Notes under the pieces: model-generated
The model's database searches: none
What the model saw: the letters and a program-made list of their open reading frames with translations, nothing else
What the model was told of the DNA's origin: nothing
In this document: positions 9,316 to 43,220 of the stretch, one piece after another
Numbering within the stretch: position 1 is the first letter of the stretch
How the letters are laid out: each line of letters opens with the position of its first letter
Source of the DNA: Candidatus Moraniibacteriota bacterium
Lineage (GTDB): Bacteria > Patescibacteriota > Minisyncoccia > Moranbacterales > DUUL01
DNA length: 64,000 nucleotides
Direction: 5' to 3'
Assembly: GCA_041583775.1 (NCBI GenBank)
Contig: JBFHFF010000001.1
Coordinates: 94,676-158,675, forward strand
Made by a program: the position numbers and the translations under genes

Positions 9316-12300
9316 TTATTTTTTATCAAATTTTTCAATATATTCATTAAATTCACTTAATTCTTTAAGTAACTTCTTGTTTATAGTTTTACCCCCCTTG
9401 ATGTACGCAATAATTCTCTCACTAACGCTACAATCTTCCATACCTGGAATATTTTCGGTCTCCTTTCGAATTTCATTAGCAAGTAACATCGCTCTTGAAT
9501 GATCCAAATAAAATAATTTTTCTTCTACACTATCTGCCTTAAGTATCTCATTGTCATCAACTACAACCTTGATTTGTTTCGCAAAATCGCTCCACTTTTT
9601 GTCTTTAAAGGTGGTTGTGATTTCCTCTTCTGAAACTTTCATTAAACTTTCATCAATATCATCCCCTAATTGCTCAGGTACTTGAGGATTTGTTTTTTCA
9701 ACTTCAGACTCCACTCCAACTTCACCTAAACTCTCTCTATTGGTTTCAGCCGCCTTCTTTGGCTTTTCACCAACTTCCTCTTCTGGCTTTTCAGATTTAT
9801 TTTCTTCAGGAACTTCTTTTATTTTCGCTTCACGATGAACATTATCTCCACCTACTTCTTCTTTCTTGCTAACTGGAGCGCCTTCTTCAATAAATCTCTC
9901 ATCGTCTACATCAAAATTCACTGTGGGAGTTTTCTCTTTTGGCCAATGATCCATTCTTGCTTCAATCTTCCCATTCTCACCAATTGGTGCCAGTCTATCA
10001 ATTCCTTCTTCTTTTGCGATTACCCCTCCTTCTAGCGAATCACTGTTTTCTTGAAGAAATACTGGCTTTATTATCTTTGGTTTATAGTTCTCTTTTAAGG
10101 CATCTTCTAAAACAATTCTTCCCGGTTTTTTTATCGCCGTCTTATCTATTTCATCATAGACAATTCCAGCAACTCTGCCCATTCTTCCAGCCTCTCTGAC
10201 ATCAACAGTTCCTAGTACCTGCCTCACTTCTGGCGATAAACTTAAACTATTATTTTTCCAAGCAGCTACCGCCTCTGCTTCTGTTTTTGGGAAATCATCC
10301 AATTGTTTTAATGTCATCTTGCTCATCGCCCGCCAAGTAACATCTCCCTCCTTAATTTTTAATTCAACTAATCTTGAACTGAGCTCTTCCTTTGTTAAAA
10401 TTTTTGGACTGTTCTCTGCATCCGCTAGGACTTCTTTTTGATTTTCCAATTGAGAAGATTTTTGACCTTGTGATAAGCTATCGACACCCCCACCATCATC
10501 TGTCTGTTCATTTAATTTATTTCCGAAAAATTTCTCATGCTCTATTTGTGCACCAGGCAATGAATCAGTCTCTGTTTTTGCCCTAAGAATATATTCTCTT
10601 CCCCCAGCCTTTATGCGCTTAATCCAAAGACCTTCCGTTTCTTTAGAACTTCCTCCATGTTCTTCAATGAATTTATTATGAGCTTCTTCGCTATATTTTA
10701 ATTTAAATTCCTTATACGCATCAGTTTTCTTTAATCCCCCAGCCTCAAACTGTTCATCAATTTGTTCTAAACTAGCTTCTTTAAAATATTCATCTCTGTC
10801 ATTTCTGACATGCTCAATCCAAGCATTATTTGCTTCAATTTTAGTTCCATCATATCCTTCAACAAATTTGATATGAGCAGCCGCACTGTGCTCTGCTTGA
10901 AATTTCTTAAAAGCCTCAGTATCTTCAAATCCTGCCGTTTCAATTTTATTGTTCGTTTCTACAAATCGATTCTCCGGAGCTCTTTCTTTTGAATTATTTC
11001 CTTCTGGATATGAACCTCCACTCTTTGCATTAATAATCTGGGAATCACTCGATTCATTTACATCAAATGAACCAAATTCAGAAATTTTATTTTTTGCATC
11101 TATTACTCGATTTTCCCAAAAATTTTCTAATATTTCGTCATCTGCTCCGTTATGATCTTCGATAAATTTTGCATGCGCCTCTGGGCCAAATTTCCGTTCA
11201 AATTCCTCCAAAACCGGCTCTTTTACTCCACTTAATCTTAGTTTATTTATTGCATCCTCAAAAGATTCATTTTTAATATTAGCTAGACTTTCAATAGCAT
11301 CAGGTCTTTCTGTTGATGACTCAGGACTCGACACACTTGCTGCCTCAGCAACATTTCTTGTAGTTGTTGTATGATTCCCTGAATCGTTAGGAATTTCAGA
11401 AGTAAAATTGGGAATATCTGACCAATCCAAAAAAGCTCTGGCCCCACCCCCTACAACAAGCCCCGTAATTCCTGCCGCTGCCATAGCCTTAAGATTGTCA
11501 TTTCTCTCTATGTTCATTTTCTTTTGCACCATCGAAACCATATCAAGTTGACCACCCTTACTAAAATAATTGTCTATTGTTTTTTTCTCAATTTTAACCT
11601 TCCTTTCATCTCTTGTTGATTCAGTTCTATTTTTAACATCCCTAAAGGCTGCCGCACCAAGAGCTCCTCCAGGTAAACTTCTAACCACCTTCATTCCCAT
11701 TCTCGAAACTCCAACTCCTAATGCAGTACTAATTGCCCCACCTGCAACAAATGAACCAACTGTACCAACTACACCAGCCAATAATGTTCCATAAACGAGC
11801 TTCTCTTTTCTAGACAACTTTTTATATCCAGCCGATAAATTCTCAATAATACCCTTTTCACGCTCATTTAAAATCTCTTTCCTTGCATTATTTATCTCTA
11901 ACATTTTATTGATAAGGTCTTGCATTGGACTTATTTTCTCGACCATTTTCTCTCCTGAATCAGTTACAACCTCTGAATCAACAACTTTCTCCATAAATAT
12001 ATATTTTCTCATTAATTCATTTTTATCCTCACTATTCACCATTCCATGATCCAGGGCAATTTTTCTACTCTCAACTCTTGTTTGGATAAAATCGCTATGT
12101 GCTTGCTTAAAAGCACTCTCTGTCTCTTTTATTCTTTTCTTTGCTTCATACAATTCTTTCATCGCTTCAGCATCATTTCCAAGAAAAATTTTCATCCTCG
12201 CAAGACTTCTTTCAACAATCCCCAATCTATTTCCCTTTTTTTCATAATCTATTTGTGCGTTCTTCCAGTCTCGAAATGCCTCATTCATTTTCAAGTGTTT

Positions 12301-14343
12301 TTCTTTTTCGATATGATTTTCGTCTTTCTCTCCCACTTCAATTCCTGGTTCAGTCTCTATTTCATCTTCTGGTTTGTCTTTTGAAGTTTCTGTCTGTTCA
12401 GCATCCTTGACAATTTTCTCAAAATTTATTGATTCATTTAAGGTACCCGTTTCTTCTCCACGCCTTTCAAGTTCTTCTTTGTATTTTTTTATACTAACTT
12501 CAACTTCTTGAAACTGATTTTTTTTCTCTTTATTAGTTTTATTACTATCTAATAATAAATTGTTCCTGATTTCATTCAACTGCAAGAGTTCCTCCTGCAA
12601 AACAGAAGTTTCAACTTCTTCAAGATTTTCCTCAGATTTATTATTTTTTACCTCCTCTGTGTTCTCTTCTTGCTTGTATTTTTCTTCTTGACCACCCATA
12701 TTCTCCTCATCTTTTCTCCCAAAATCGTCTGTTCTGTCCATCCATTCTTGAAAATGAGTTCCTTGCTTCTTCAGTCTTTTTCCTCTTTCCTGATTATCAA
12801 TTATTTTTTCACCTTCTGTTTTATCCATCCATTCCCGAAAGTGAGTTCCTTGGGCCCTCAATGCCTTCTCCGTTGTTGTTTCTCCTGGACCTTCTTTTAT
12901 TTTCACCTCTTTTTTTAATTCGTTTTTTATCTCCGAACCTATAGCTGACTCTGTGCTAGGAGCTTCCTCGTTTATTCCCAATTTTTCCTTTGGCCAGTTA
13001 TTTTGAACTTTTTTTTCATTTCCAGAATCAAAAACTCCATCAACATTCGACTCTTTTCGATAACCTCCATTTAAAATCATCTGTCTCAATTCTTTAACTG
13101 AAACATACCTACCCTCTTTTTCTCCGGCAATTAAAATTCTAGCTTGATGTTGTTTACTTTGTTGTGAAAATTTATCTTTTTCAATTACAAAAGGCTTCAA
13201 TCCTCCCTGATTGCTTTTAAAAACAAATTCCTTACTTTTTCCAAACTCAGCAACAAAATCTTCTGCCCTCATTCCACCAGCTTCAACTTCGGGAATGACT
13301 TCTATTTCTGGATATTCTTCATTAATTAACTCTTCTAATTTATCTGGAGACATAATTTTTTCCCCACCAATATCCGTCCCTTCAACTTGAATTTCCCATC
13401 TATTCTGAGCTTTCTCATATAGATACTTCGTAATTTTAAGTTTTTTTATCCCATCCTTGCTTTTATGAACAGACCCAACCACACCAAAAATATTCATCAT
13501 ATCCTTAAGACTCAAAACCTCTCCGTTCTTTTTTTCTAGTGCACTTACCTCCATTGAGTCAATTTCTTTAAAAGATAATTCTTCTTTACTACCATCACCA
13601 CTACCTTCTTCCACTCTCTTAAAGTTCTTAAACAACTCTAAAAATTCTTTACCGTCCATTATTTCGTCATCAGAACCACTCTTCCAATCAGCGTCTAAAT
13701 TGATTACATTTACACCCTCCTCAACCATTGTTCCAGAGGGCAAAAAAGCAATATGAACTCTACCATTTTCATAACTAACAATTTTCATATGCTTCTTACC
13801 ATCCTCGCTAACATAAATCTCATTAGGATCTATTTTATGTAACTGAAAAAAATCCTCTCCAAAATTCTCTTCTTGGATTTCTACTTTTTTATTTTCAATA
13901 CCTTTCTTGTTATCTTTTTTTTGAACTTCAACCTTTTCTGTCTCCAACTCAACCTCTTCAATCTTTTTAATAAAACTTTCATCAACTAGACCCTCTACCT
14001 CACCCTTAACAATTCTCTCCAAACTAGAAAGTCTTTTACTTCTCAAAAATTCACAAATAACCGCATCTGTAGCTTGGGCATTTTCCAAATTCAAATCACC
14101 CGCCATTGCAGTTTCTTTTAACTTGGCAGCAAGCTCTGCAAGATCAATAATTAATTTTCCCTGAAGCTCCTTTCTTTCACCTGGAGAATGCTTCATCAGA
14201 TAATCGTTGATAACATCCTTAGAAAACTTCCTCTCAAGTACAGACACAACGCCATTTTTAATCTCCTTTCTTTGTTCTGTTTGCTCAAAATTTTCTACCT
14301 GCGAAGAACTTTCTCTTGATTCTTCTGTTGTTGTTTCTGACAT
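9316..14343 (-). CDS. Giant (1675 aa) charged protein with central glycine-rich TM segments and internal sequence repeats; unknown function
   Basis: Single uninterrupted ORF with no signal peptide. Central hydrophobic Gly-rich segments (LVYGTLLAGVVGTVGSFVAGGAISTALGVGV; AMAAAGITGLVVGGGARAF). Three repeats of the xFxxKxxxEAHxKFIE[DE]HxG motif and a duplicated GTHF[RQ]EWMD[KR]T unit. Confidence 0.7.
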   Translation of the reverse strand: MSETTTEESRESSSQVENFEQTEQRKEIKNGVVSVLERKFSKDVINDYLMKHSPGERKELQGKLIIDLAELAAKLKETAMAGDLNLENAQATDAVICEFLRSKRLSSLERIVKGEVEGLVDESFIKKIEEVELETEKVEVQKKDNKKGIENKKVEIQEENFGEDFFQLHKIDPNEIYVSEDGKKHMKIVSYENGRVHIAFLPSGTMVEEGVNVINLDADWKSGSDDEIMDGKEFLELFKNFKRVEEGSGDGSKEELSFKEIDSMEVSALEKKNGEVLSLKDMMNIFGVVGSVHKSKDGIKKLKITKYLYEKAQNRWEIQVEGTDIGGEKIMSPDKLEELINEEYPEIEVIPEVEAGGMRAEDFVAEFGKSKEFVFKSNQGGLKPFVIEKDKFSQQSKQHQARILIAGEKEGRYVSVKELRQMILNGGYRKESNVDGVFDSGNEKKVQNNWPKEKLGINEEAPSTESAIGSEIKNELKKEVKIKEGPGETTTEKALRAQGTHFREWMDKTEGEKIIDNQERGKRLKKQGTHFQEWMDRTDDFGRKDEENMGGQEEKYKQEENTEEVKNNKSEENLEEVETSVLQEELLQLNEIRNNLLLDSNKTNKEKKNQFQEVEVSIKKYKEELERRGEETGTLNESINFEKIVKDAEQTETSKDKPEDEIETEPGIEVGEKDENHIEKEKHLKMNEAFRDWKNAQIDYEKKGNRLGIVERSLARMKIFLGNDAEAMKELYEAKKRIKETESAFKQAHSDFIQTRVESRKIALDHGMVNSEDKNELMRKYIFMEKVVDSEVVTDSGEKMVEKISPMQDLINKMLEINNARKEILNEREKGIIENLSAGYKKLSRKEKLVYGTLLAGVVGTVGSFVAGGAISTALGVGVSRMGMKVVRSLPGGALGAAAFRDVKNRTESTRDERKVKIEKKTIDNYFSKGGQLDMVSMVQKKMNIERNDNLKAMAAAGITGLVVGGGARAFLDWSDIPNFTSEIPNDSGNHTTTTRNVAEAASVSSPESSTERPDAIESLANIKNESFEDAINKLRLSGVKEPVLEEFERKFGPEAHAKFIEDHNGADDEILENFWENRVIDAKNKISEFGSFDVNESSDSQIINAKSGGSYPEGNNSKERAPENRFVETNNKIETAGFEDTEAFKKFQAEHSAAAHIKFVEGYDGTKIEANNAWIEHVRNDRDEYFKEASLEQIDEQFEAGGLKKTDAYKEFKLKYSEEAHNKFIEEHGGSSKETEGLWIKRIKAGGREYILRAKTETDSLPGAQIEHEKFFGNKLNEQTDDGGGVDSLSQGQKSSQLENQKEVLADAENSPKILTKEELSSRLVELKIKEGDVTWRAMSKMTLKQLDDFPKTEAEAVAAWKNNSLSLSPEVRQVLGTVDVREAGRMGRVAGIVYDEIDKTAIKKPGRIVLEDALKENYKPKIIKPVFLQENSDSLEGGVIAKEEGIDRLAPIGENGKIEARMDHWPKEKTPTVNFDVDDERFIEEGAPVSKKEEVGGDNVHREAKIKEVPEENKSEKPEEEVGEKPKKAAETNRESLGEVGVESEVEKTNPQVPEQLGDDIDESLMKVSEEEITTTFKDKKWSDFAKQIKVVVDDNEILKADSVEEKLFYLDHSRAMLLANEIRKETENIPGMEDCSVSERIIAYIKGGKTINKKLLKELSEFNEYIEKFDKK

Positions 14344-17445: not shown

Positions 17446-17483
17446 GTGGGGGGATGATAAGATTATCTCCCCACCTTTTTATT
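17446..17483 (+). terminator. Intrinsic terminator after the zinc-ribbon ORF
   Basis: GC-rich stem of about 9-10 bp, gtggggggat/atctccccac, with one wobble. Followed by CTTTTTATTT. Confidence 0.55.
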
Positions 17484-17506: not shown

Positions 17507-18985
17507 TTATCTTTTCACTTGGCAAATTTTCATTCCCTGAAAATTACCTACTTCTTCCATTAACATTTCTTCACCCCAATCACAAGTCCAGTCAATGATA
17601 ATCATCCTGTTATCACTTTTAATTTCTGTTAGATTCGTTATCCTGTTATCATTTCCAACAACAACCCACTTACTAAAATCTTCCATTGGATTTGATCTGT
17701 GATAATATCTAACATTTTCTTCCCCGAAATAATATCTAGCAGATGTATAGCCGAATGGTCCATCCGCAACAACAATACTCTTATTAAAAACGGGATATTC
17801 TTTCATAAAATTTGAGACCTCTGTCCAACCTCCTTGAAATTGGATTGGCACCAATAGAAATATAGTTGCCACATAAATTCCAAGAGTTATTATCCAAGAC
17901 CACTTTGAACTAAAAACTAAAGTGATCATTCCTGCGAATAGGAGATAAATCAAAAGTGCAGATGGCATAAAATACCTTGACACATAGAGTTTTAAATTAA
18001 AGTGAGCAAGAATGATTAGAAACAAAAGAGTCCCCAATGAGATAACGGCCAATACAAAAACTTCTTTTTTTTGACGCCCTTTAAACCAAGTGTAACATAG
18101 CATTGCTATTATTAAAGTAAAAACCAATAAACCCATTGATGTTCCATCGAACAAGGGGATATCTTTATATAATTTAACAAATTCAACTGATTCAGGAACC
18201 CCCCCACTCCCTGGTTGATGACCGAAAAAGAAAATCTGCAAAGTTTTTGGTATATCACTAAGATTAGCTGGTGGAATCCAACCCAAATTGCCTTTCAGCA
18301 TATGTGGAATAAAATACCGAAGCCAACTGACAAAAAAAACTATTATGGTTCCCACTCCTATCCAGAAATTTTTATGTCCCAAAATTGCACTTATCCAGTT
18401 CTTTTTTTTAAAATTCTTTCCATAAAAAATATAACAAACATAAAAAATAATGAAAAAGAACAATGAAAGATAATGTGTCAGAAAAGACAAACCAGCAAAA
18501 ATTCCCCAAAAAATCCAGTCTCTTCTTTTGTCATTATCTAGCGCCCTCACGAAAAACCAAACAGACCAAAGAAAAAGAAAACCAAATAATGAATACATTC
18601 TAGCTTCTTGTGAATATTCAATTGCAAAAGGTGAAATAGCGGTTATAGCTGCAGCCAAAAGACCAGTTCTGGTATTAAACATTCTCTTTCCAATCCAATA
18701 GATTGAAATCACGGTTAAAATTCCAAAAAGAAATGAGAAAGAGCGAATTCCCTCTGGAGAATAACCAAATAAAGCGCTCCAGGGTTTAGCCAACCAATAA
18801 TATAATGGTGGATGAACATCTGCAAAAATCATCTGATTCATATCCCCCCAAGATGCTTTCAATAAAATTCCAGTAAAAGCTTCATCGTACCAAAAATCAC
18901 GCTGCCAAATAATTGGAGTGTACCTTAGAATCATCGCCAGAAATGTTAACAGTGTCAAAATAATGGCTGGAAAGAATTTTTTCAT
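17507..18985 (-). CDS. GT-C glycosyltransferase, family 39/83-like (PMT/ArnT-type)
   Basis: Polytopic membrane protein with the first-loop motif WYDEAFTG and the downstream DVHPPLYYWL typical of PMT/ArnT-type transferases. Confidence 0.65.
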   Translation of the reverse strand: MKKFFPAIILTLLTFLAMILRYTPIIWQRDFWYDEAFTGILLKASWGDMNQMIFADVHPPLYYWLAKPWSALFGYSPEGIRSFSFLFGILTVISIYWIGKRMFNTRTGLLAAAITAISPFAIEYSQEARMYSLFGFLFLWSVWFFVRALDNDKRRDWIFWGIFAGLSFLTHYLSLFFFIIFYVCYIFYGKNFKKKNWISAILGHKNFWIGVGTIIVFFVSWLRYFIPHMLKGNLGWIPPANLSDIPKTLQIFFFGHQPGSGGVPESVEFVKLYKDIPLFDGTSMGLLVFTLIIAMLCYTWFKGRQKKEVFVLAVISLGTLLFLIILAHFNLKLYVSRYFMPSALLIYLLFAGMITLVFSSKWSWIITLGIYVATIFLLVPIQFQGGWTEVSNFMKEYPVFNKSIVVADGPFGYTSARYYFGEENVRYYHRSNPMEDFSKWVVVGNDNRITNLTEIKSDNRMIIIDWTCDWGEEMLMEEVGNFQGMKICQVKR

Positions 18986-19079: not shown

Positions 19080-20042
19080 TTATTTATCTTTATTTTTTTT
19101 AACATCTTTTTTCTTATCCTCTCTTTCAGTTTCTGTTTTCGCTTCTTGTATTTTTTCATCAGAAACACCTTTGACTGCTACTTCTTCTAATTCTTTTTCC
19201 CTTTCTTTATAATCTCTAAATCTATAAACCACTTTTCCTTTTACTCTTAAATCGACATATTCAAGTTGTGCTAAATCAATTTCTGATATCTTAACAGTTA
19301 AAATTTTTTTTAAAATTTTAACCTGCTTTTCTAAAGATCTCTCTGTCGAAAAATATATTTCCCAACCAACTTTCGTTTTGACCCTTACTTCACCCGCGAC
19401 TAAAGAAGGGATGTATAATGATTTTATATCAATCTCTATGTCAGTATCTTCTTTCATTATTTTTGGCAGCTTGTTACATAGTTCAACAATTTCAATATGA
19501 GCAACTTTATCGCCTTTTTCAACGACCCTTCCACTTCTATCAGTAATTAAAACAATATCTTCCTTCAGTTCTTTCTCTTGATTCTTTATCTCATAAAAAG
19601 CTTCTGCAATCTCATCAATCAACCAACAGCTATTGTTACTACACCAAACGAAAGAATCTTTTCTTCTTTCCACTTCCAAAACTATTTTTGATGGAAATTT
19701 TTTCTCGACTCTGACATTCCTCGTCATAATAAATTCAGTCCTAATTCCCAATTGAATTTTTTCTAGGGGTGCTATCAATAAATTATTTCTAGGGAAAAAA
19801 TCAAAATATTTTCCAGACATTTCTTTTTCAACAATTTGTCTAATTCCTATTTCATCTTCAGCAGCTCCTACAATATCAATCTCTTCGATTTGCATTGCTG
19901 GCGAAAATATAACTGTCCAAACTACTACTGCACAAAAACCAAAAAAAATAAACCAAAAAACAACTTTCTTAAATATTTCCAAAAAGGTGTTTCTCTTCTT
20001 ATTTTTTGTTTTTTTATTTACAGCAGTCTCCCTTTGAATCAT
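19080..20042 (-). CDS. ftsQ: Cell division protein FtsQ/DivIB-like (TM + POTRA)
   Basis: N-terminal TM helix (VVFWFIFFGFCAVVVWTVIF) followed by a POTRA-like region (IEEIDIVG...). Sits at the end of a ddl/mur gene cluster, as in dcw operons. Has an extended K/E-rich C-terminus. Confidence 0.55.
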   Translation of the reverse strand: MIQRETAVNKKTKNKKRNTFLEIFKKVVFWFIFFGFCAVVVWTVIFSPAMQIEEIDIVGAAEDEIGIRQIVEKEMSGKYFDFFPRNNLLIAPLEKIQLGIRTEFIMTRNVRVEKKFPSKIVLEVERRKDSFVWCSNNSCWLIDEIAEAFYEIKNQEKELKEDIVLITDRSGRVVEKGDKVAHIEIVELCNKLPKIMKEDTDIEIDIKSLYIPSLVAGEVRVKTKVGWEIYFSTERSLEKQVKILKKILTVKISEIDLAQLEYVDLRVKGKVVYRFRDYKEREKELEEVAVKGVSDEKIQEAKTETEREDKKKDVKKNKDK

Positions 20043-20060: not shown

Positions 20061-20831
20061 TTAAGCCTTGCTCTCGTTTCTCCTGACATCTGTTTGTTCC
20101 AATTCATCTGCCACTATTTTTGCTATCACCAAAGAGTTGATATTATGTCTTCCTGGTCTTTCTATCTCAAAAAACTTTTTTTGCATCTTGTAATCAAAAG
20201 CAAAACTCTGACCGGCATCATTTTCTTTTATATTGGATATTACCGCGTCGCAAGATTTATCCTTACCAAAAATAATTGTTTTTGAGTTGGCAATACTTGC
20301 CAAATTTCTTGTTCTCACATCATCGCCATTTAAAATCAAAGTGCCATCCACTGGAATTGCTTTCGCCAATACAGCAAATTCCTTGGCAATATCATCAAGT
20401 GCTATCTCCAGTTCTGGGAAATTTCTATCAACATTTGTAACTATTGCAATCTTTGGCCTCACTAATGAAAGAAGATATTTCATATCCCCTGGACGGTCAA
20501 CTCCCATTTCCAGAACCAAAATTTTTGGAAATTTTCTAGAAAAAATCGAAATGCAAGTTCCTGTCAATAAAACATCCACCCACCTAAAAATTGAATCAAA
20601 ACCAGAAGGAAGAAATAATACTGCAAGTGGCAAACCAATTTCAGTATTGAAACTTTTCGGATTTCCACGAACATTCGTATCGCGCCCCAATTCATCCAGA
20701 ATAGATTCCTTAACAAAAGTTTTATTTGTAGTTCCAGCAACAGCTATCACAAAAGGCTTGTGTCGCAATAAAACAATTTTAGTTAACCATTTTAGATAAA
20801 ATTGAACTATCACCTTAAAAATTTTTTTCAT
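20061..20831 (-). CDS. Mur-ligase family protein (MurF-like central domain) lacking the C-terminal domain, 256 aa
   Basis: VIAVAGTTNKT P-loop, NTEIGLPLAVL, LILNGDD and GRHNINSLVIAKIV all match the MurF middle domain. The ORF stops right after the last motif. The ftsQ start is 19 bp downstream, leaving no room for a Mur_ligase_C domain. Confidence 0.6.
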   Translation of the reverse strand: MKKIFKVIVQFYLKWLTKIVLLRHKPFVIAVAGTTNKTFVKESILDELGRDTNVRGNPKSFNTEIGLPLAVLFLPSGFDSIFRWVDVLLTGTCISIFSRKFPKILVLEMGVDRPGDMKYLLSLVRPKIAIVTNVDRNFPELEIALDDIAKEFAVLAKAIPVDGTLILNGDDVRTRNLASIANSKTIIFGKDKSCDAVISNIKENDAGQSFAFDYKMQKKFFEIERPGRHNINSLVIAKIVADELEQTDVRRNESKA

Positions 20832-20847
20832 TTATTTTTCAAAAAAA

Positions 20848-22068
20848 TTATTTTATGGAATCAATAAATTTACCAATTCTTCTCATTGCTTTTTCAATAT
20901 TTTCTTTTCGACGCCCAAAACAAAACCTCAAGTGACCCTCTCCTTTTTTCCCAAAAGCTATGCCGGGAACAAGAGCAACTTTTGCGCTATTCAACAATTC
21001 AATTGCAAATCTCCAAGAAATTGAATTTTTCTGATAATCCTTTAAATCATTCTTGTTATTACTTTTTTTATTTTCATATTTCTCAAAAGCTGTAATTAAT
21101 TTATCAGTCATTTTAGGAAAAACAAAATAAGCCGAAGAAGGATCTTGGTATTCAAACCAATCACTTAATTTATCCAATTCCTCACAAAGAAAATCTCTTC
21201 TTTGTCTGAAAATTTCTTTATATTTAATAACAACACCGTCAGCCATCTCTAGCGCAGCTAAAGCACCCCACTGAGAAACAACTGGCGCACATGTCACCAA
21301 AGAATCATGGACTCCAAGAATTTTTTCAGCCAATTCTTTATCCGCAGCCAAATAAGCAACTCTCCACCCAGTCATTGCATATGACTTAGAAAAAGAAAAA
21401 ATATAAATGAACCTCTTTCGAAGAGCTGAAAATTGTGCTAACGAAAAAAAATCTTTATTAGAATAAATAAAATCTTTATATACTTCATCTGCTAGAATAT
21501 AAAGATTGTACATTTGTGCAAGCTCTGCAAGTTGCATTAATTGTTCTTGAGAAAAAACCGTACCAGTTGGATTGTTTGGATTACAATATAAGATTGCTTT
21601 TGTTTTTGAAGTGACTCTCTTTTTAAATTCTTCGATATCGAAATCCCAACTATTTTCTTCCTCAAGAGGCACAAAAACAGGAATCCCCCTAGCGGTCTTA
21701 ATGGCAGACTGATAAGAAGTGTAGGTTGGATCAGGAACCAAGACCTCATCTCCTGGTTCTAAAATTGTTAACAAACTGGCTGTAATAGCCTCAATTGAAC
21801 CAGCAGTAACAATTATTTCTTTCTCGAAATCATAGAAAATATTTCTTTTCGCCAAACTATATTCTATTGCTTCTCGCAATTCTAAGATTCCAGGAGCCAG
21901 AGAATATCTAGCTACTCTTCCATCCTCAATAGCCTCAATAGCCCTCTTTTTAACACAAAGCGGTGTATCGAAACTTGGTATTCCTTGAGCTAGCGAAACT
22001 ACACCTGGAATTCGTGAGCTAAGAATTTCTATCTCTTTTATTGGAGATATTCTATTTTCATCTTTCAC
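20848..22068 (-). CDS. PLP-dependent class I aminotransferase
   Basis: SFSKSYAMTGWRVAY carries the lysine of the SxSKxxxMxGxRxGY motif. 406 aa. Embedded between ddl and the mur-ligase gene. Confidence 0.8.
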   Translation of the reverse strand: MKDENRISPIKEIEILSSRIPGVVSLAQGIPSFDTPLCVKKRAIEAIEDGRVARYSLAPGILELREAIEYSLAKRNIFYDFEKEIIVTAGSIEAITASLLTILEPGDEVLVPDPTYTSYQSAIKTARGIPVFVPLEEENSWDFDIEEFKKRVTSKTKAILYCNPNNPTGTVFSQEQLMQLAELAQMYNLYILADEVYKDFIYSNKDFFSLAQFSALRKRFIYIFSFSKSYAMTGWRVAYLAADKELAEKILGVHDSLVTCAPVVSQWGALAALEMADGVVIKYKEIFRQRRDFLCEELDKLSDWFEYQDPSSAYFVFPKMTDKLITAFEKYENKKSNNKNDLKDYQKNSISWRFAIELLNSAKVALVPGIAFGKKGEGHLRFCFGRRKENIEKAMRRIGKFIDSIK

Positions 22069-22151
22069 CTGAAATTTTGTTTCATTTCTTATAATATAAA
22101 TTATAGCAAAAAATCACATTCTGTCTATTTCTTAGGCGAAAAAAGATATAT

Positions 22152-23090
22152 CTATTTATCAATTTCCATCTCAATAAGTTTATCTAATAACACTGGAAAT
22201 TCCATCCCAGCAGCTTTTGCAGATTTTGGTGCAAGTGAGGTTACTGTCATTCCTGGAATTGTATTTATTTCTAAAAAATAGATCTTGTCGCTTTTATTAT
22301 CCCAAATAAAATCAACTCTTGCTAAATTTTTACAACCAATGGCGCCAAAGACTTTAACAGCCATCTTTTGTAATTCATCACGAATTTCATCAATAATTTC
22401 AGCTGGGCAAATTTCATCACAAGCCCCTGCAACATATTTTGATTTATAATCAAACCACTGGGAATTTTTAGGCACAATCTCAATCACTGGAAAAGCTTTG
22501 GGGTTTTCCTTTCCCATAACCAAAACAGTTAGTTCTCTACCTTTAATATATTGCTCAAACATTACAACTTTATCATATTTAAAAGCAGTTGAAATTCCTT
22601 CTGCTAATTCTTCCTTGTTTTTAGCAATTGAAATTCCCACAGAAGAACCAAGCTCTACTGGTTTAATCACAACCGGAAAGCCCAAAAATTCTATTTCCTT
22701 TTTCCTATCTTCTATTTCATGCTTTTTAACAGTCACTGCCTTTGCCACTTTTAAACCTGCTTCTCTAGCAATTATTTTTGCTTTAGCTTTATTCATAGCA
22801 AGGGCGCTGGCAAGGCAACCAGAGAAAATATAAGGCACTCCGATCATATCCATCAATCCCTGTAATTTTCCATCTTCACCAAATGGACCATGAAGAGCAG
22901 GGAACACAAGATTAAATTTTTTCGAAAAAGCATCTAGGATAAATTTTTTCAATTCCATTTCTGGGTCATAACGAAAAATTTCATATTTATTCTTATCAAG
23001 CGCATCGAAAATCTGTTTACCTGTATCCAAAGAAATCTCCCTTTCACCAGAAATTCCACCAGCTAACAATGCTATTCTTATTTTCCCCAT
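22152..23090 (-). CDS. ddl: D-alanine--D-alanine ligase
   Basis: MGKIRIALLAGGISGEREISL N-terminus, ALHGPFGEDGKLQGLMDMIGVPY and ATP-grasp motifs. 312 aa. Confidence 0.85.
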   Translation of the reverse strand: MGKIRIALLAGGISGEREISLDTGKQIFDALDKNKYEIFRYDPEMELKKFILDAFSKKFNLVFPALHGPFGEDGKLQGLMDMIGVPYIFSGCLASALAMNKAKAKIIAREAGLKVAKAVTVKKHEIEDRKKEIEFLGFPVVIKPVELGSSVGISIAKNKEELAEGISTAFKYDKVVMFEQYIKGRELTVLVMGKENPKAFPVIEIVPKNSQWFDYKSKYVAGACDEICPAEIIDEIRDELQKMAVKVFGAIGCKNLARVDFIWDNKSDKIYFLEINTIPGMTVTSLAPKSAKAAGMEFPVLLDKLIEMEIDK

Positions 23091-24837: not shown

Positions 24838-25863
24838 CTAATTACAATTATAACAAACATCCCAATGAGTATCCTCTCTTGCATAAATATTACCATCGCT
24901 ATCTTCATACATAACAGCGCCATCACCTCGAACGCCAGCAGGAGTAAAATTTGCCACAATATAATTATTAACTGCTAGTGTGTCTTCTATGTCCACTTTG
25001 TAACCATTCGCATGAGAAAATGTTGCCGTAGTATTATGCACAGTTGATGTCTCTGCTCCACCAGTTATGATAATTGGAGCTCCAACCTGACTTTGAAAAT
25101 CAATCACACCTTGAGTAGTAGCTGGCAAAAGATTTGACACATTGGTAGCACCAGGGCTTGATTCCCAAACGGTAATATCATATGGAATCAAAGCATCTCT
25201 CGCATTTTGTTCATTCAAATCACTTGACACACTGCCAGTTGTTCCTGTGGTCCCCGTTGTTCCTGTTGCTCCTGTTAATCCAGTTGTTGCCAATACAGCA
25301 GAGCTTGGAGCAGCAGTATCAAAAACACTATCACTAACGCATTGAAATTCATACCAGCGTCCGCCAGAACCAACTCCAAGAAAAGACTCATTAGCAGAAA
25401 TAAAAACCAAAATAGTATAAACAAGTAACCAAGAAAGAAGAAATCCCGCAAAACCCATCAGAGTTTTTGAAATAATTCCCTTAGCGATTGTTACTGTTCC
25501 TGGATTTCCAGCTGACACTAGATAGGTAACCCCTCCGATCGTAAGAGATAATAAAGCTAATATAATTATCCAGGCAAACATCAAATCAAAAATATTCTTT
25601 ACCATTATAAGCAAATGGCAAACCGTGCAACTTTTTTGTTCGTCATAAGGAGTCCTGCTGTCATCGCAACTTCTTCCGCAAGGCACAATAGCTCTGTCAA
25701 ATTGCAAAATACTCACACCAGCTATTCCTTCTGAAGGAGCCTTAGTTCCAGCACAATCAAGGGCTTTAGCTGTTAAAGGAGCGCCAAAAAAACATCCCGC
25801 AAAAAGAAAGATTGCCAATCCCGAGAAGAAAAAATTTCTGAGATTTTTAATTTTTATTTTCAT
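24838..25863 (-). CDS. Secreted Cys-rich two-helix membrane protein with VirB2/TrbC-like topology, (GTT)n linker and C-terminal possible M15-like zinc-peptidase motif
   Basis: Signal peptide with lipobox-like LFAGC. Six Cys in CGRSCDD...CTVC. Two hydrophobic helices separated by a short loop (IFDLMFAWIIILALLSLTIGGV / LMGFAGFLLSWLLVYTILVFI). Linker TGLTGATGTTGTTGTTG. C-terminal SHANGYKVDI fits HxxGxxxD, with a later DTHWD. Confidence 0.5.
   Translation of the reverse strand: MKIKIKNLRNFFFSGLAIFLFAGCFFGAPLTAKALDCAGTKAPSEGIAGVSILQFDRAIVPCGRSCDDSRTPYDEQKSCTVCHLLIMVKNIFDLMFAWIIILALLSLTIGGVTYLVSAGNPGTVTIAKGIISKTLMGFAGFLLSWLLVYTILVFISANESFLGVGSGGRWYEFQCVSDSVFDTAAPSSAVLATTGLTGATGTTGTTGTTGSVSSDLNEQNARDALIPYDITVWESSPGATNVSNLLPATTQGVIDFQSQVGAPIIITGGAETSTVHNTTATFSHANGYKVDIEDTLAVNNYIVANFTPAGVRGDGAVMYEDSDGNIYAREDTHWDVCYNCN
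25235..25288. repeat. Imperfect 9-bp tandem repeat (6 units, consensus ccNgttgtt) inside CDS 24838..25863
   Basis: Units are ccagttgtt, cctgtggtc, cccgttgtt, cctgttgct, cctgttaat and ccagttgtt. They encode the Gly-Thr-Thr linker on the minus strand. Confidence 0.7.
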
Positions 25864-29742: not shown

Positions 29743-30843
29743 CTAGGTATTCTGCTTAATAAATTCTACTATTTTTTCTTCAAAAACTTTCTTGGAAAAA
29801 TTTTCAGCATGCTTACGAATTTCAATATGGTTATAATTATTTTCATTTGCAATAAACCTTCTAATTCCGTCTGCTAAAATCTCCAATTGTGGTACATCAA
29901 AAAACTCCCCTGTCTTACCTTCAATTACAGTCTCCATTGTTCCGCCTTCTCTCAAAACAATTGCTGGTTTTCCTGCAGCCATTGCTTCCACTACTGTAAT
30001 ATTAAAGTCATCTTCAGAAGCACAAACAAATGCTCGTGTATTTTCATATAACTTTATTAGTTTTTTGTCATCGACGAATCCTAAAACTTTGATATTTTTA
30101 TTGTCCTTTGCAATTTTTTCAAGAGCTTTTTTTTCCTCACCCTCCCCAACAATAACAAGTGGTAGTTTGAGTTTTACAAACACCTCTGCAATTAATTTTG
30201 TTCTTTTATATGGAGACAACCTTCCTACTGTCAAAAAATAATCATCATGCTCTTTTTGTGGATAAAATTTTTCCACATCAACTGGAGGATAAATTACTTC
30301 GGATTTTTTGCGATAATATTTATCGATTCTTCTCGCTGTGTATTTCGAATTAGCAATAAATTTATCCACTCGCTCAGCACTCGCTCTATCCCACATTCGT
30401 AAATAACTCAAGAAAAATCTAACAAATAATTTTGTTCTCCCTTTAAGCTTTTGTTCTTCAAGATATTCATGGCTCCAGTCCCAAGCATACCTCATTGGCG
30501 TATGCATATAACAAAAATGTTTTGTTTTTGGTTTCACGACAATACCTTTTGCAAAAGCCGATGATGAAGAGATAACGACATCAAAATCTCGCAAATCAAA
30601 AGTCTCAATTGCTGTTGGCATTAAAGGAAATAAGAATTTATGTTTTTTTATGAGAAATTTTGGCATCTTTTGCAAAAAAGAACTCTCCACTTTTTGGCTA
30701 GAAAATATCTCTTTTTTATACTCCTCATCTTGAAGCAAGGTAAAAATAGATGCTTCTGGAAAAATTTCACTCATTACTTTTAGAGTTTTTTCAGCCCCTC
30801 CTTGATATAAAAGAAAATCGTGTACAAATGCAATATTTTTCAT
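29743..30843 (-). CDS. Glycosyltransferase family 4
   Basis: GT4 C-terminal motif ASEDDFNITVVEAMAAGKPAIV (E-x7-E). Confidence 0.8.
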   Translation of the reverse strand: MKNIAFVHDFLLYQGGAEKTLKVMSEIFPEASIFTLLQDEEYKKEIFSSQKVESSFLQKMPKFLIKKHKFLFPLMPTAIETFDLRDFDVVISSSSAFAKGIVVKPKTKHFCYMHTPMRYAWDWSHEYLEEQKLKGRTKLFVRFFLSYLRMWDRASAERVDKFIANSKYTARRIDKYYRKKSEVIYPPVDVEKFYPQKEHDDYFLTVGRLSPYKRTKLIAEVFVKLKLPLVIVGEGEEKKALEKIAKDNKNIKVLGFVDDKKLIKLYENTRAFVCASEDDFNITVVEAMAAGKPAIVLREGGTMETVIEGKTGEFFDVPQLEILADGIRRFIANENNYNHIEIRKHAENFSKKVFEEKIVEFIKQNT

Positions 30844-30895
30844 CTCTAATTTTGAATTTTATTTATAAGTAAACACGGTCAAATCATTTAACTTG

Positions 30896-31981
30896 TTAGG
30901 ATTGCGAAAGTAAAACCTTCGCAATACCTTCCCCGCATTTTTCCCAAGAAAACCTTTTTGTATTCTCAAATCCTTTTCTTACAACATCATCATATTTCTT
31001 TTTGTCTATCAAAATATTTTGAGCGACTCTAGCAATATGCTTTGGGTGCGTAGGAACTGCTAAAATTTCTTCATTCCCAGCGACTTCATCCATTGGCCCA
31101 AAATTTGATGTAATAACAGGAACACCAACGCTTTGCGCTTCTAAAATAGGAATACCAAAACCTTCGCACAATGAAGGAAACATAAAAATCTCTGCCTTAG
31201 CTAATAAATTAGTCTTTTCTTCTTCAGAAATAAATCCCAGCATTTTAATGTCTTCTTTATATTCGCTTCCATTAATTTTTTTTTCAATCTCTTCATACCC
31301 ATAGCCAAATTTTCCAGCTAATAATAACTGTCCTTTATAATTATATTCTCTTTTCAGAATTTCAAAAGCAGCAATTATGTTCTTGATATTTTTTCGTTCT
31401 TCTATCCTACCAATATAAAGGATATACTTATCACTCTCAATTTTTTTTGATAATTTGAGATATTCCTTTTTAATTTCAAAACCATTATAAACAACTATTA
31501 TCTTGCTTTTCTGAATTTTATACATCTTCACAAGATCTTTTTTCGTGTTTTGCGAAACTGAAACAATTTTTTTTGCCCAGCGACAACTTCTGGTGACAAA
31601 AAAGTGATGAAACCATCTTGAATATAAAGAATACCCTTTTGGACAATGTTCGTATTCGAGCCCATGCACTGTTACAATTGTTTTTCTAGGATGCACGAAA
31701 GGAACTGTATGCGCTGGAATAAAAAGAACATCAATTGGTCTTGTTAACATTTCCCAGGAAAGACCAGTTTGTGTCCAAAAATAGTTGAAAGGTACTACTT
31801 TTATTTTCCAATTTTTTGGCAAATCAAAATCAAGATTCTTTTTTCCTTTTTCTTTTACATATAGAAAAACTTCGTGGTCACCTAGGTGCTCCCGAAGATT
31901 TTTAATCGCTTGATATGCATATTCCTCAATTCCAGTTCTTTGCTTTATCAGTGCCCTTGATGCATCAATTCCAATTTTCAT
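30896..31981 (-). CDS. Glycosyltransferase family 4
   Basis: PSLCEGFGIPILEAQSVGVPVITSN (E-x7-E). Confidence 0.8.
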   Translation of the reverse strand: MKIGIDASRALIKQRTGIEEYAYQAIKNLREHLGDHEVFLYVKEKGKKNLDFDLPKNWKIKVVPFNYFWTQTGLSWEMLTRPIDVLFIPAHTVPFVHPRKTIVTVHGLEYEHCPKGYSLYSRWFHHFFVTRSCRWAKKIVSVSQNTKKDLVKMYKIQKSKIIVVYNGFEIKKEYLKLSKKIESDKYILYIGRIEERKNIKNIIAAFEILKREYNYKGQLLLAGKFGYGYEEIEKKINGSEYKEDIKMLGFISEEEKTNLLAKAEIFMFPSLCEGFGIPILEAQSVGVPVITSNFGPMDEVAGNEEILAVPTHPKHIARVAQNILIDKKKYDDVVRKGFENTKRFSWEKCGEGIAKVLLSQS

Positions 31982-39911: not shown

Positions 39912-42900
39912 TTACTCTGTTAATTTATCAGGATCCTCATCTAATCTTCGTCCGATTTGTTTGATTTTGTCAACATAATCAATTTCCGTAATTACATGCG
40001 CAACTTCATCAAGTGTAGTTTCACCTCTTAGAATGTGCAATATTCCGTCTTGTCCCATTGTCAGCATTCCCTCTTCAATGGCTTTTTCTCTAATTTCAAT
40101 TGTAATTGGGTTTGTTGTTAAAAATTTCTGCATATTCCTACCGACTTCCAATACCTCCGTAATCGCAACTCTTCCTTTAAAGCCAAGATTGTGACATTTA
40201 TCACAGCCAATTGGCTCAAAAACTTTATTCGCCGTTTTAGGGATATCAACTTCTATTTTTGAAGAGATACTATCCAAAACCTCCTCTATAATTCTTTTCT
40301 CCTCAGGTTTCATATCTCGCTCCCTCTTACAATGAGGACAAAGCGTTCTAACTAATCTTTGCGCAACAAAACAATTAGTTCCCGAGGAAAGATCTGACAT
40401 AGAAACACCCATATTCAACAACCTTTGCACCGAACCAGCAGCACTATTAGTGTGTAATGTTGTTAAAATCAAGTGACCTGTTAAAGCAACTTTGTAAGCG
40501 GCGTTGGCACTTTCAGAATCTCTTATCTCTCCTACCATTATAATATCAGGATCCTGTCTTAAGATAACCCTCATAGCGCTCGAAAAAGTATATCCGTCAT
40601 CTTCTTTCACTTGTGTCTGTAAAATTCCTTCCATTTGATATTCAATTGGATCTTCTATTGTTATAACTTTGAGCTTTGGATCTTTAAGATAATTCAAAAG
40701 ACTATACAAAGTGGTTGTTTTACCACTGCCGGTTGGTCCTGTGTCCATAATAATCCCATTTGGCTTTGCAACATTTCTAAGTATCTTCTCAAGATTATAA
40801 GGATTCATATTTAACTCGGCTAATTCTGTCACCTGAACACTTTGACTCAAGAGCCTCATAACAATAACATCCCCAAAACCACCTAAGATTACAGATACTC
40901 TAACATCTATTGATTCCTCCCCTGACTCCCTTTCTTTATTTGAATAAACAATTTTAAACCTTCCATCTATCACCCCTTCTCTCTTGCCTGTCTTTACTCC
41001 CATTAGATTTTTAATCTCATTTAAAACAGTAAGATAATCATTCATTGATAGAAGAGCAACATCATGCAAAACTCCATCAATTCGATATCTGATTTTAAAT
41101 TTTTTCAATCCAGGCTCTACATGAATATCACCAGCACCTGTATACACAGCTCCAATCAAAACATATCTCACCAATTCCTTCGGGGGGAGGGTAGAAAATA
41201 ATTCTTCAAATTCTTCGTAATTGTCTTTCACTTTCAACATTTCCTCCAAGACATCATCTTTGATGAAAATTCCACGCGCCAAAGATTGAACAACTATTTT
41301 TTCATATAAATCAATTAGATATTCTCCTTTTCCAACAACGCGTTGCAATTCTTCAATCGAAGTGACTCCGGAAACTGACTTCAAAATTCCATCCTGTTCC
41401 AGAGTAATCATTCCGTTCTCTAGCGCTGCACTCCTAATTTCATCCTCTGGAGCCATTTTTTCAATCGCTTCCTTAATTTCATCTGTAATAACAAGTATCT
41501 CAAAAATACCAACGCGCCCTTTATAGCCAAGTCCATGACATTTAGCACAACCCTTTGGCTTCCAAAGTTTATCAATGTGCTTAGGAATCGAAATATCTGC
41601 CTTAGGAGAAATAAGCGCAAGCATTTTTTTTATCATATCAATAGTTTCGCTTGCTGGTACATATTCTTCCTTACAATGTGGACATAGACGCCTCAAAAGA
41701 CGCTGGGCAACAAAAGCATTTACTGCGGGCGCAATCAGGTTGGGCTTAACTCCAAGATCAACAAATCGTCCAATTACACCACTAGCACTATTTGCATGTG
41801 TTGTTGAAAGCACTAAATGTCCAGTCAAAGATGCGTGAATAGCAATCTCTGCAGTAGATTCATCTCTAATTTCTCCAACCAAAATTATATCTGGATCTTG
41901 ACGCATAATCGCTCTTAATCCATTTTCAAAAGTATACCCTTTTGAATCTTCAACTTGTGTCTGACTTACGCCAGGAACTTGATACTCAATTGGGTTTTCA
42001 ATACTAATAATTTTTTTATCAACAGAATTTAAACGGTTTATTAGAGCATAAAGAGTTGTAGTCTTTCCACTTCCCGTCGGTCCTGAGTTAATTATTGCAC
42101 CTTGTTTTTTCTCTGACTCATTTACAAGCCATTCATAGTTTAAACCTTCTAGTCCCATCTTACTTAAAGACAAATCGTTGATACTTTGACTAAGTAAACG
42201 GACTACAATGTTTTCACCAAAATTTCCTGGCAAAACTGAAACACGAAGATCCATCGCTGACTGACCCTCTCTTTCAACAGAAAAACGACCGTCTTGAGCA
42301 ATGTCACGCACATTTATCATCATTTTCGAAAGAACCTTTACCCTCGAAACAATCGTTGGATATATATGTATCGGAAATGATGCAACTGTCTGAAGAACGC
42401 CATCAATACGAAACCTTAAACGAACTTTTCCTGTCTGTTGAGGTTCGAAATGGATATCCGAAGATTGCAATTTAATTGCACCAGCAAGAATCATATTCAA
42501 AACCTTGGTTACTGGAAGATCTCGAATTTTTCTATCCATATCCAAAACTCCTTTTGTTTCATCCTCAAAAGCTGCTAATTCCTCCCCTGTCAAACCAGCT
42601 CTTAGTGTATCAAGAATTACACTCAGATTCTCCTTTTCATATTCTTGCCAAGCTCTTTCTATTGAAGACTGTGACACCACAAAAAGCTCAACCCTCATCC
42701 CATCATCCTCTAAATCAGTAATAAAATCTCTAACTTTTCCACTTTCAGGATTAGTGGTAACTATCTTAATTGATCTTTCTAATTTATGAACGACTGCAAT
42801 TCCCAAATTTTTTGCTGTTTCCTTATCAATAAATTTAACATTTTCTTGATCAATTGGAAAAATGTTTAAATCTAAGTAAGGAAGATGCATATCCTTTGCA

Positions 42901-43220
42901 AGTTTCGAAGCCTCTTCTTCCTCAGAATCCCTCCTTAAGTGGGTTAATGTTTTCTGAACTCCTCCTCTTCTAGCAAAATTAATAGCCTCTTTGTTCTTTT
43001 TCTTCAACTCAAGCAATCTAGCTCTTTCTTTTTCATTCTCTAATTCTCTTTCTATTCGTCTTTTTTCACGAGCCTCTAAATAGCGCTGTTCCCTTTCTTC
43101 TGGAGATTCGTCTTCTTCATAAACAACTCTTTCCACATCTTTATCTGCATTTGTTTTAACAGTTTGCGAGCTATCATCCACAACAGCATCTCCTTGATTT
43201 TGTTTTTCTTCTTCACTCAT
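39912..43220 (-). CDS. Tandem-fused double PilB/GspE-type (type II/IV secretion/pilus assembly) ATPase, 1102 aa
   Basis: Contains two complete units. Each unit has a T2SSE N-domain, Walker A (SGPTGSGKTTTLYAL / TGPTGSGKTTTLYSL), Asp box, Walker B (DPDIILVGEIRD / DPDIIMVGEIRD), His box (GHLVLSTTHANSA / GHLILTTLHTNSA) and a tetracysteine motif (CPHCKEEY...CAKCHGLGYKGR / CPHCKRERD...CDKCHNLGFKGR). Acidic N-terminal extension. Confidence 0.85.
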   Translation of the reverse strand: MSEEEKQNQGDAVVDDSSQTVKTNADKDVERVVYEEDESPEEREQRYLEAREKRRIERELENEKERARLLELKKKNKEAINFARRGGVQKTLTHLRRDSEEEEASKLAKDMHLPYLDLNIFPIDQENVKFIDKETAKNLGIAVVHKLERSIKIVTTNPESGKVRDFITDLEDDGMRVELFVVSQSSIERAWQEYEKENLSVILDTLRAGLTGEELAAFEDETKGVLDMDRKIRDLPVTKVLNMILAGAIKLQSSDIHFEPQQTGKVRLRFRIDGVLQTVASFPIHIYPTIVSRVKVLSKMMINVRDIAQDGRFSVEREGQSAMDLRVSVLPGNFGENIVVRLLSQSINDLSLSKMGLEGLNYEWLVNESEKKQGAIINSGPTGSGKTTTLYALINRLNSVDKKIISIENPIEYQVPGVSQTQVEDSKGYTFENGLRAIMRQDPDIILVGEIRDESTAEIAIHASLTGHLVLSTTHANSASGVIGRFVDLGVKPNLIAPAVNAFVAQRLLRRLCPHCKEEYVPASETIDMIKKMLALISPKADISIPKHIDKLWKPKGCAKCHGLGYKGRVGIFEILVITDEIKEAIEKMAPEDEIRSAALENGMITLEQDGILKSVSGVTSIEELQRVVGKGEYLIDLYEKIVVQSLARGIFIKDDVLEEMLKVKDNYEEFEELFSTLPPKELVRYVLIGAVYTGAGDIHVEPGLKKFKIRYRIDGVLHDVALLSMNDYLTVLNEIKNLMGVKTGKREGVIDGRFKIVYSNKERESGEESIDVRVSVILGGFGDVIVMRLLSQSVQVTELAELNMNPYNLEKILRNVAKPNGIIMDTGPTGSGKTTTLYSLLNYLKDPKLKVITIEDPIEYQMEGILQTQVKEDDGYTFSSAMRVILRQDPDIIMVGEIRDSESANAAYKVALTGHLILTTLHTNSAAGSVQRLLNMGVSMSDLSSGTNCFVAQRLVRTLCPHCKRERDMKPEEKRIIEEVLDSISSKIEVDIPKTANKVFEPIGCDKCHNLGFKGRVAITEVLEVGRNMQKFLTTNPITIEIREKAIEEGMLTMGQDGILHILRGETTLDEVAHVITEIDYVDKIKQIGRRLDEDPDKLTE

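Follow-up and report, generated by a model that had tools for sequence, protein, structure and literature searches.

A stand-alone MurF-type middle domain encoded beside an aminotransferase in Patescibacteria is probably a ligand-binding partner rather than a ligase

Why would a bacterium keep a Mur ligase gene from which a whole catalytic domain is missing, and keep it in the middle of a cell-wall gene cluster? This question is raised by a locus in a Candidatus Moraniibacteriota bacterium (NCBI GenBank assembly GCA_041583775.1, contig JBFHFF010000001.1, positions 94,676 to 158,675). We analysed this whole stretch of 64,000 nucleotides (nt), hereafter called the window, which has a GC content of approximately 34% and a gene content typical of Patescibacteria, also known as the Candidate Phyla Radiation (CPR). 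On its minus strand lies a run of five genes: ddl, a class-I aminotransferase (AT), a short Mur ligase homologue, an FtsQ-like gene and a PMT_2 glycosyltransferase. The third of them, an open reading frame (ORF) of 256 amino acids (aa) at 20061-20831 on the minus strand, is a member of a family of stand-alone MurF-type middle domains that we name sMur here. The answer that we favour, and consider reasonably probable, is that sMur is a ligase-incompetent, still ligand-binding partner of the AT in cell-wall precursor supply or division.

The preliminary description of this locus treated the ORF as a MurF-like ligase truncated at its C-terminus. The four motifs that it quoted are all present (VIAVAGTTNKT at residues 28-38, NTEIGLPL at 62-69, LILNGDD at 165-171 and GRHNINSL at 227-234). 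The protein does not stop right after the last motif as described; it runs on for 22 residues and ends at the normal boundary between the middle and the C-terminal domain. Its Pfam content consists of PF08245 (Mur_ligase_M) only, at 64.2 bits against a cutoff of 24, and its best NCBIfam model is murF TIGR01143, which it matched at 104.4 bits, short of the cutoff of 288.6. An AlphaFold2 (AF2) model of the protein had a predicted local distance difference test score (pLDDT) of 89.4, and its best PDB matches in a Foldseek search were the middle domains of MurF (8f5d, 4cvm and 1gg4; query TM-score, TMq, 0.67-0.74). Both the PF08245 score and the fold place sMur as a middle domain of the Mur ligase superfamily. 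As to the type of ligase, which the preliminary description had left between MurF, MurE and MurT, the best-scoring model, the alignment to MurF and the matched structures all point to MurF. Compared with E. coli MurF, an insertion of approximately 25 aa is found between residues 153 and 155 of the latter; it occupies sMur residues 80-104 (approximately 20520-20594), contains a conserved Trp (W84) and is common to the short and the full-length Patescibacteria forms.

In every known Mur ligase, the C-terminal domain supplies an invariant Arg and Asp as well as the site for the second substrate (D-Ala-D-Ala in MurF). The preliminary description had reported that this domain is encoded in no frame, and our searches agreed: a hidden Markov model (HMM) of Mur_ligase_C, built from the C-terminal part of 81 full-length relatives, gave no match at E<=1 when all six-frame segments of the entire 64-kb window were searched. 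A six-frame scan for the middle domain recovered a single segment, and Pfam scans detected no second Mur ligase among the window's other large ORFs. To call the protein a truncated MurF is correct as far as the missing C-terminal domain is concerned, but it understates the change. The classical N-terminal domain of MurF is absent as well, with sMur residue 27 aligning to E. coli MurF residue 101, and three catalytic residues that the preliminary description did not mention, Gly110, His188 and Lys202, are replaced.

We compared these catalytic positions, in E. coli MurF numbering, between the 81 full-length relatives and 61 short forms. The P-loop Gly110 is invariant in the full-length proteins (81 of 81), whereas the short forms mostly have Asn, as does the window protein. 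His188, likewise Gly110-like in its invariance (81 of 81), and Lys202 (78 of 81) are both mostly replaced by Tyr or Phe in the short forms, and by Phe in the window protein. The intervening P-loop Lys111, present in all 81 full-length proteins, is retained in 53 of the 61 short forms and in the window. The typical short-form signature at positions 110, 111, 188 and 202 is N, K, Y, Y, and that of the window protein is N, K, F, F. Accordingly spelled, the P-loop in the window is G-T-T-N-K-T and not the canonical G-x-x-G-K-T/S; Asn occupies the Gly position in 104 of 117 close homologues. We take His188 to align with the His that binds Mg2+ in MurC and MurD, and Lys202 to be the carbamoylated Lys that is required in MurD, MurE and MurF; the Mg2+-binding His and the carbamoylated Lys of Mur ligases are said to go back to work by Bouhss in 1997 and by Dementin in 2001.

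Other residues of the cleft have been kept. Of the 61 short forms, 55 retain the Mg2+-binding Glu. Conservation is approximately at the level of active enzymes for the P-loop Lys, Glu108, the N-x-E-I-G-L-P loop, Asn168 and Asp170, and the LN.DD motif has stayed conserved too. Some members of the short clade have also lost the P-loop Lys or Thr (GNQY, GGRY, GRRA). Residues conserved in the short clade only, which would be a sign of a new surface, were almost absent from the residue-conservation comparison. We also considered the second Asn of the HNxxN motif as a sign of lost ATP binding and rejected it, since the full-length Patescibacteria MurFs lack this residue too. Because the catalytic residues are replaced and the C-terminal domain is gone while many cleft residues are conserved, the sMur cleft is probably ligase-incompetent yet still ligand-binding, and no mere structural relic. 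Judged by its sequence, sMur should not be filed as MurF, because four features that define MurF were looked for and are missing: the family cutoff is not reached, the C-terminal domain is absent, the P-loop is altered and the His188/Lys202 pair is replaced.

How widespread is this form, and where does it come from? A homologue search of 5.8 billion proteins returned 819 relatives of sMur. Among the best 120 of them, nearly all are 246-271 aa long at 48-100% identity; all contain PF08245 only, and those that are named come from Patescibacteria or Moranbacteria. The short form is found in the genomes of approximately 70 GTDB species, in lineages including Moranbacteria, Falkowbacteria, Uhrbacteria, Nealsonbacteria, Campbellbacteria and Paceibacterota. 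When 1.84 billion cluster representatives were searched exhaustively with an HMMER profile, 599 proteins scored E<1e-30. The best 150 of these comprise approximately 60 short forms mixed with approximately 80 longer proteins (400-440 aa) whose N-termini line up with residue 1 of the short forms. The 400-440 aa relatives that we tested contain Mur_ligase_M and Mur_ligase_C and are annotated as MurF at their source. Searches of the available literature on Mur ligases and on Patescibacteria/CPR found no description of the sMur family, and the databases label its homologues "Mur ligase family protein" or give them the incorrect name MurF. Within the known Mur-ligase superfamily, sMur is an undescribed variant.

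The longer relatives define what a genuine MurF looks like in these bacteria. Such proteins (L081 9983-11299, L091 8001-9314, L092 3226-4545 and P0154-P0269) are 400-440 aa long and consist of the middle and C-terminal domains only, with the P-loop at approximately residue 30 and no UDP-binding N-terminal domain. They are encoded in the context mraZ-rsmH-ftsL-ftsI-murF, followed by a polyprenyl synthase, and they just reach the TIGR01143 cutoff of 288.6 bits (289 bits for P0154 and 288.9 for L081). Because they combine Mur_ligase_M with Mur_ligase_C, carry the MurF annotation and reach the cutoff, Patescibacteria MurF itself reads as a two-domain enzyme without the classical N-terminal domain. 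It is the closest known protein to sMur in sequence and in structure. Both share the N-terminal helix, the N-x-E-I-G-L-P loop, the ExG Mg2+ motif, the LN.DD motif and the lineage-specific insertion. Unlike this MurF, sMur has no C-terminal domain and has exchanged Gly110 for Asn and His188 and Lys202 for Tyr or Phe; the N-terminal domain of classical MurF is missing from both. The sMur gene stands outside the mraZ...murF cluster, beside the AT.

In a neighbour-joining tree of the middle domain only, the sMur family branches from within the Patescibacteria MurF proteins. Short forms with altered catalytic residues, 50 out of 52, make up one clade with zero full-length members. Nine further short forms have a fully canonical signature and are all placed among the full-length forms; because of this nesting, they are probably fragments. 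The single clade of altered forms most likely reflects a single origin, in which a two-domain (middle plus C-terminal) Patescibacteria MurF paralogue would have lost its C-terminal domain. In two loci (L070 5569-6942 and L078 5882-7255), a 457-aa MurF-like ligase with an N-terminal extension of approximately 105 aa lies directly upstream of ddl-AT-sMur. These ligases score 213-218 bits with TIGR01143, below the cutoff, and may be a trace of the duplication behind sMur.

Canonical MurF and sMur coexist in the two relatives in which this could be checked. On CAZIWW010000001.1, a 247-aa sMur (L025) and a 438-aa MurF (L081) are approximately 34 kb apart on the same contig. On ENA contig_83260 (356,620 bp), sMur (P0105) is located at approximately 179 kb and MurF (P0296) at approximately 231 kb, approximately 51 kb apart, and this MurF gene sits inside mraZ-rsmH-ftsL-ftsI-murF.

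The gene neighbourhood suggests a link between sMur and an enzyme. We annotated 90 related loci with custom-built HMMs and, for the synteny in GTDB species genomes, counted 75 non-redundant short-form loci. The AT gene is located directly upstream of sMur on the same strand in 71 of the 75, with a median gap of 15 nt, and the two genes overlap in 12 loci, typically by 4 nt. Of the four loci that have no upstream AT, two lie at the edge of a contig, and in the other two mraY-like and cca genes take its place. On the other side, an FtsQ-like gene directly follows sMur in 48 of the 75 loci, including 25 apparent overlaps in which the start codons are uncertain. A same-strand ddl is found upstream of the AT in approximately 22 of the 75. 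These frequencies make AT-sMur the conserved core, to which ftsQ is usually added, and not ddl-AT. The order ddl, AT, short Mur ligase and ftsQ, which the preliminary description put forward as the cluster, is present in the window, but ddl is not a constant part of it; moreover, the spacer between the sMur stop codon and the next ATG, that of the FtsQ-like gene at 20042, is 18 nt, and the start given earlier, 19 bp on, is corrected by this value.

The AT itself (406 aa, 20848-22068, minus strand) is a class I/II pyridoxal phosphate (PLP) aminotransferase, AspAT-like within class I. PF00155 was matched at 3e-67 (227.7 bits), with the Lys motif SFSKSYAMTGWRVAY, and the PLP motifs CNPNNPTG, DEVY, FSFSK..AMTGWR and H.R..FGR are conserved in 69 orthologues, so that the PLP-Lys, Asn, Asp-x-x-Tyr and Arg motifs of the class are all in place. 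Its nearest solved structures are the Pyrococcus aromatic/aspartate aminotransferases 1dju and 1gd9, which are broad-specificity archaeal AspAT/AroAT enzymes. No NCBIfam equivalog cutoff was reached for any subfamily (AspC, DapL/DapC, AlaA, PatA and others): the best model was PRK07682, at 301.7 bits against 620, and the DapL-type models scored 211-214 bits against 507-593. We dropped the assignment of the AT to AspC, DapL or another subfamily, given the missed cutoffs and the broad specificity of the PDB neighbours. Because it lies directly upstream in 71 of 75 loci, the AT is likely to be the partner of sMur, and a dedicated supply of amino acids for peptidoglycan would be a reasonable role for it.

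Putting the cleft and the neighbourhood together, we favour the following picture. sMur would add no D-Ala-D-Ala and catalyse no classical Mur-ligase reaction. Its remodelled cleft would most likely still bind a phosphate-bearing or muropeptide-type ligand, and the protein would probably serve the co-translated AT as a partner or non-ligase subunit. The pair would thereby couple the amino-acid chemistry of the AT to peptidoglycan-precursor synthesis or to division, a role that is suggested because the neighbours include ddl, ftsQ and occasionally mraY or a MurF-like ligase.

Several observations weigh against this picture. Since the P-loop Lys and Thr, Glu108, Asn168 and Asp170 are retained, the protein could have a residual or an altered ATP-dependent activity that goes beyond mere binding. 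The substitutions are not uniform across the clade: some short forms keep Gly at position 110, and some keep His188. The neighbourhood is not invariant either: ftsQ is not the next gene downstream in approximately 18 loci that have enough sequence there, and the AT is not upstream in the two loci with mraY-like and cca genes. We infer the link between sMur and the AT only from gene order and tight spacing. Lastly, a full-length MurF of this genome itself was not located in the 64 kb examined out of a contig of 227,752 bp, and MurF was found only in relatives. A working MurF is expected elsewhere in the genome, because the relatives have one and because the window encodes ddl, murA, mreB and an L,D-transpeptidase.

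Three known arrangements help to place the pair. MurT/GatD is the complex for the amidation of D-isoglutamate in lipid II; MurT is a Mur-ligase homologue that has no UDP-binding N-terminal domain and is structurally closest to MurF, and it keeps the canonical GTNGKT site as well as the C-terminal domain, on which GatD docks (PMC6113224). Like MurT, sMur is a Mur-ligase homologue without the UDP-binding N-terminal domain and is encoded beside an enzyme that is its presumed partner. The lack of this domain is an architecture that MurT also shares with genuine Patescibacteria MurF. Unlike MurT/GatD, sMur has neither the C-terminal domain nor a canonical P-loop, and its neighbour is a PF00155 aminotransferase and not a glutamine amidotransferase. 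MurT/GatD is the nearest known two-protein arrangement to AT-sMur, which falls outside it on these features. The MurE-like subunit of the plastid-encoded RNA polymerase (8r6s chain Q), which ranked 37 among the fold matches and is presumably non-catalytic, has the Mur-ligase fold in a non-ligase assembly; it differs from sMur in being a full-length MurE homologue of a eukaryotic organelle in an unrelated context. The third comparison concerns logic and not fold. The glutamate racemase MurI of E. coli is activated by UDP-MurNAc-L-Ala, so an amino-acid-converting enzyme is there tied to the level of a muropeptide precursor. By analogy, sMur could supply a muropeptide-binding module for the AT, with the difference that the activator of MurI binds the enzyme itself and no separate subunit derived from a Mur ligase is involved.

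What else could the short gene be? The preliminary description hesitated between a pseudogene and a genuine short variant possibly working with a partner, and at first sight the ORF does look like a truncated MurF; a second, intact MurF, which had been named as a sign of a decaying paralogue, is indeed present on the same contig in two relatives. The short copy, however, is not decaying. Comparing the window with its two nearest GTDB relatives, the ratio of nonsynonymous to synonymous substitution rates (dN/dS) was 0.09-0.10 for sMur and 0.10-0.11 for the adjacent ddl, values that are approximate because dS was saturated in these pairs. sMur is under purifying selection as strong as that on ddl. 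The length of 246-271 aa in nearly all of the best 120 homologues, the occurrence in approximately 70 GTDB species and the monophyly of the altered forms all speak for a genuine variant, as does the AT upstream in 71 of 75 loci. A frameshift or an assembly error, which the preliminary description had proposed to look for, does not explain the missing domain: the Logan assembly of run SRR29257459 encodes an identical sMur protein with the same neighbours, and no remnant of the C-terminal domain is left downstream in any frame. With conserved length, low dN/dS, a single clade and the matching Logan assembly, decay or artefact is ruled out for practical purposes, and we give it next to no weight. 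A split ligase, in which sMur would be the catalytic core and the C-terminal (and N-terminal) domains would be provided in trans by separate genes, is highly improbable. It would fit the truncation exactly at a domain boundary and the complete fold of the middle domain. A stand-alone Mur_ligase_C ORF, though, was found neither in any frame of the window nor in the 90 related loci, in which all 10 matches of the C-domain HMM belong to full-length proteins; the catalytic residues of the supposed core are replaced, and the two relatives already have a complete MurF.

That sMur is still an enzyme deserves a more serious hearing, although we regard it as unlikely. It would phosphorylate or adenylate a carboxylate, with the AT supplying or consuming the other reactant, in a two-protein activity loosely resembling that of MurT/GatD, where a Mur-like protein is known to work together with another enzyme (PMC6113224). 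In this respect, the retention of the P-loop Lys and the Mg2+-binding Glu in 53 and 55 of 61 short forms, the near-active conservation of Asn168 and Asp170, the specific and not random nature of the replacements (Asn, Tyr, Tyr/Phe) and the tight operon coupling to an enzyme are all suggestive. Nevertheless, three residues that are invariant or nearly so in the 81 full-length relatives are all replaced (the Gly in front of the P-loop Lys, the His and the Lys that is carbamoylated), some clade members have lost the P-loop Lys or Thr as well, and with the C-terminal domain the site for the second substrate and the invariant Arg and Asp are gone. It is also on this very domain that the partner docks in MurT/GatD (PMC6113224). 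We find it doubtful, more so than residual enzyme activity, that sMur is a divisome or scaffold protein that in truth works with FtsQ or with the full-length Mur ligases, the AT being merely co-transcribed. The position of ftsQ directly downstream in 48 of 75 loci, 25 of them with apparent overlaps whose start codons are uncertain, would suit such a role, and non-catalytic Mur-ligase homologues do exist as structural subunits, with the plastid RNA-polymerase subunit (8r6s_Q) among the fold matches. Still, the AT is a far more constant neighbour than ftsQ, another gene follows sMur in approximately 18 loci with enough downstream sequence, and conservation is centred on the former active-site positions and not on a new surface. 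A narrower form of partnership, to which we attach a rather low probability, would make sMur a muropeptide-binding module for UDP-MurNAc-peptide or a lipid-linked stem peptide, that is, a ligase turned into a specificity or regulatory subunit of the AT. The pool of peptidoglycan precursors could then possibly switch the AT on, as a trans-acting counterpart of MurI activation. More radically, sMur might hold the stem peptide for the AT to act on one of its residues; for example, a keto-acid at position 3 might be transaminated in situ to a diamino acid, in organisms without normal amino-acid biosynthesis. The broader reading, a ligase-incompetent but ligand-binding partner of the AT, is the one that we retain.

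The remaining genes of the run are as follows. The FtsQ/DivIB-like protein (320 aa, 19080-20042, minus strand) is divergent, with an N-terminal transmembrane segment and a Lys/Glu-rich tail. Its sole Pfam match, FtsQ_DivIB_C, is not significant (E=0.028); its syntenic orthologues match better, with four out of five hitting POTRA_1 (best 4.6e-7) and FtsQ_DivIB_C (1.5e-4). The D-Ala-D-Ala ligase gene ddl (22152-23090, minus strand) was identified with NCBIfam PRK01372 at 339 bits against a cutoff of 243. PMT_2, a GT39/ArnT-like membrane glycosyltransferase (17507-18985, minus strand; PF13231, 8e-24), closes the apparent transcription unit, and its conservation is limited to Moranbacteria-type loci. 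The best sigma-70-like site of the region, TAGACA-16-TATAAT with an extended TG and 11 of 12 matches, lies in the ddl-AT spacer (22100-22127, minus strand) and, as a consensus match only, may be a putative promoter of AT-sMur-ftsQ-PMT_2. Just past the end of PMT_2, a strong GC-rich 13-bp hairpin with a T tail (17446-17474, reported on the plus strand; again a consensus match only) is a likely predicted terminator of the same unit. DUF4012 proteins and pairs of GT4 glycosyltransferases recur around this unit, at 13-1410 and 29743-31981 in the window and directly upstream in L005 and L007, which hints at a broader envelope-glycan neighbourhood.

Where ftsQ is not downstream of sMur, a small DUF5654 membrane protein often comes next (L042, L045, L054, L055, L060 and L070), and in some of these loci an ORF for a membrane protein of approximately 310 aa follows it. 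On ENA contig_83260 (L003 2944-5973), lysS and serS upstream of the AT were called as several short fragments with sMur and the AT intact, which points to frameshift or homopolymer errors of the kind met in long-read assemblies. Many GTDB records with the CPR-type operon (L014, L015, L018, L021, L025, L034, L037 and others) bear titles such as "uncultured Bdellovibrionales", "Gammaproteobacteria", "delta proteobacterium" or "Bathyarchaeia"; probably, metagenome-assembled genomes were submitted here under wrong labels. Elsewhere in the window, a 1102-aa protein (39912-43220) with two T2SSE (PilB-type) ATPase matches and an MshEN domain appears to be a tandem-duplicated type IV pilus ATPase. A giant ORF of 1675 aa (9316-14343) gave no match in the Pfam scan, and another of 2490 aa (56073-63545) adjoins an ABC/FtsX (MacB-like) pair at 54023-56097. 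A 341-aa T4SS_pilin-like protein (24838-25863), with a weak Pfam match below the gathering score, contains the Thr-Gly repeat TGLTGATGTTGTTGTTG and has Cys-rich ends.

The mostly uncultured Patescibacteria, whose genomes are minimal, make up a large share of bacterial diversity, and a gene under strong purifying selection in a minimal genome is likely to matter. sMur is almost certainly not the D-Ala-D-Ala adding enzyme; because automated annotation labels it "MurF" or "Mur ligase family protein", pathway reconstructions could count it as such. In sMur, bacteria would provide a case of a former Mur ligase reshaped into a protein that is no ligase. A coupling between the AT and muropeptides, if true, would raise the interest of the family further. 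The near-invariant pairing of AT and sMur in the neighbourhood of ddl and ftsQ provides a concrete two-gene module, which may reveal how Patescibacteria couple amino-acid chemistry to cell-wall synthesis.

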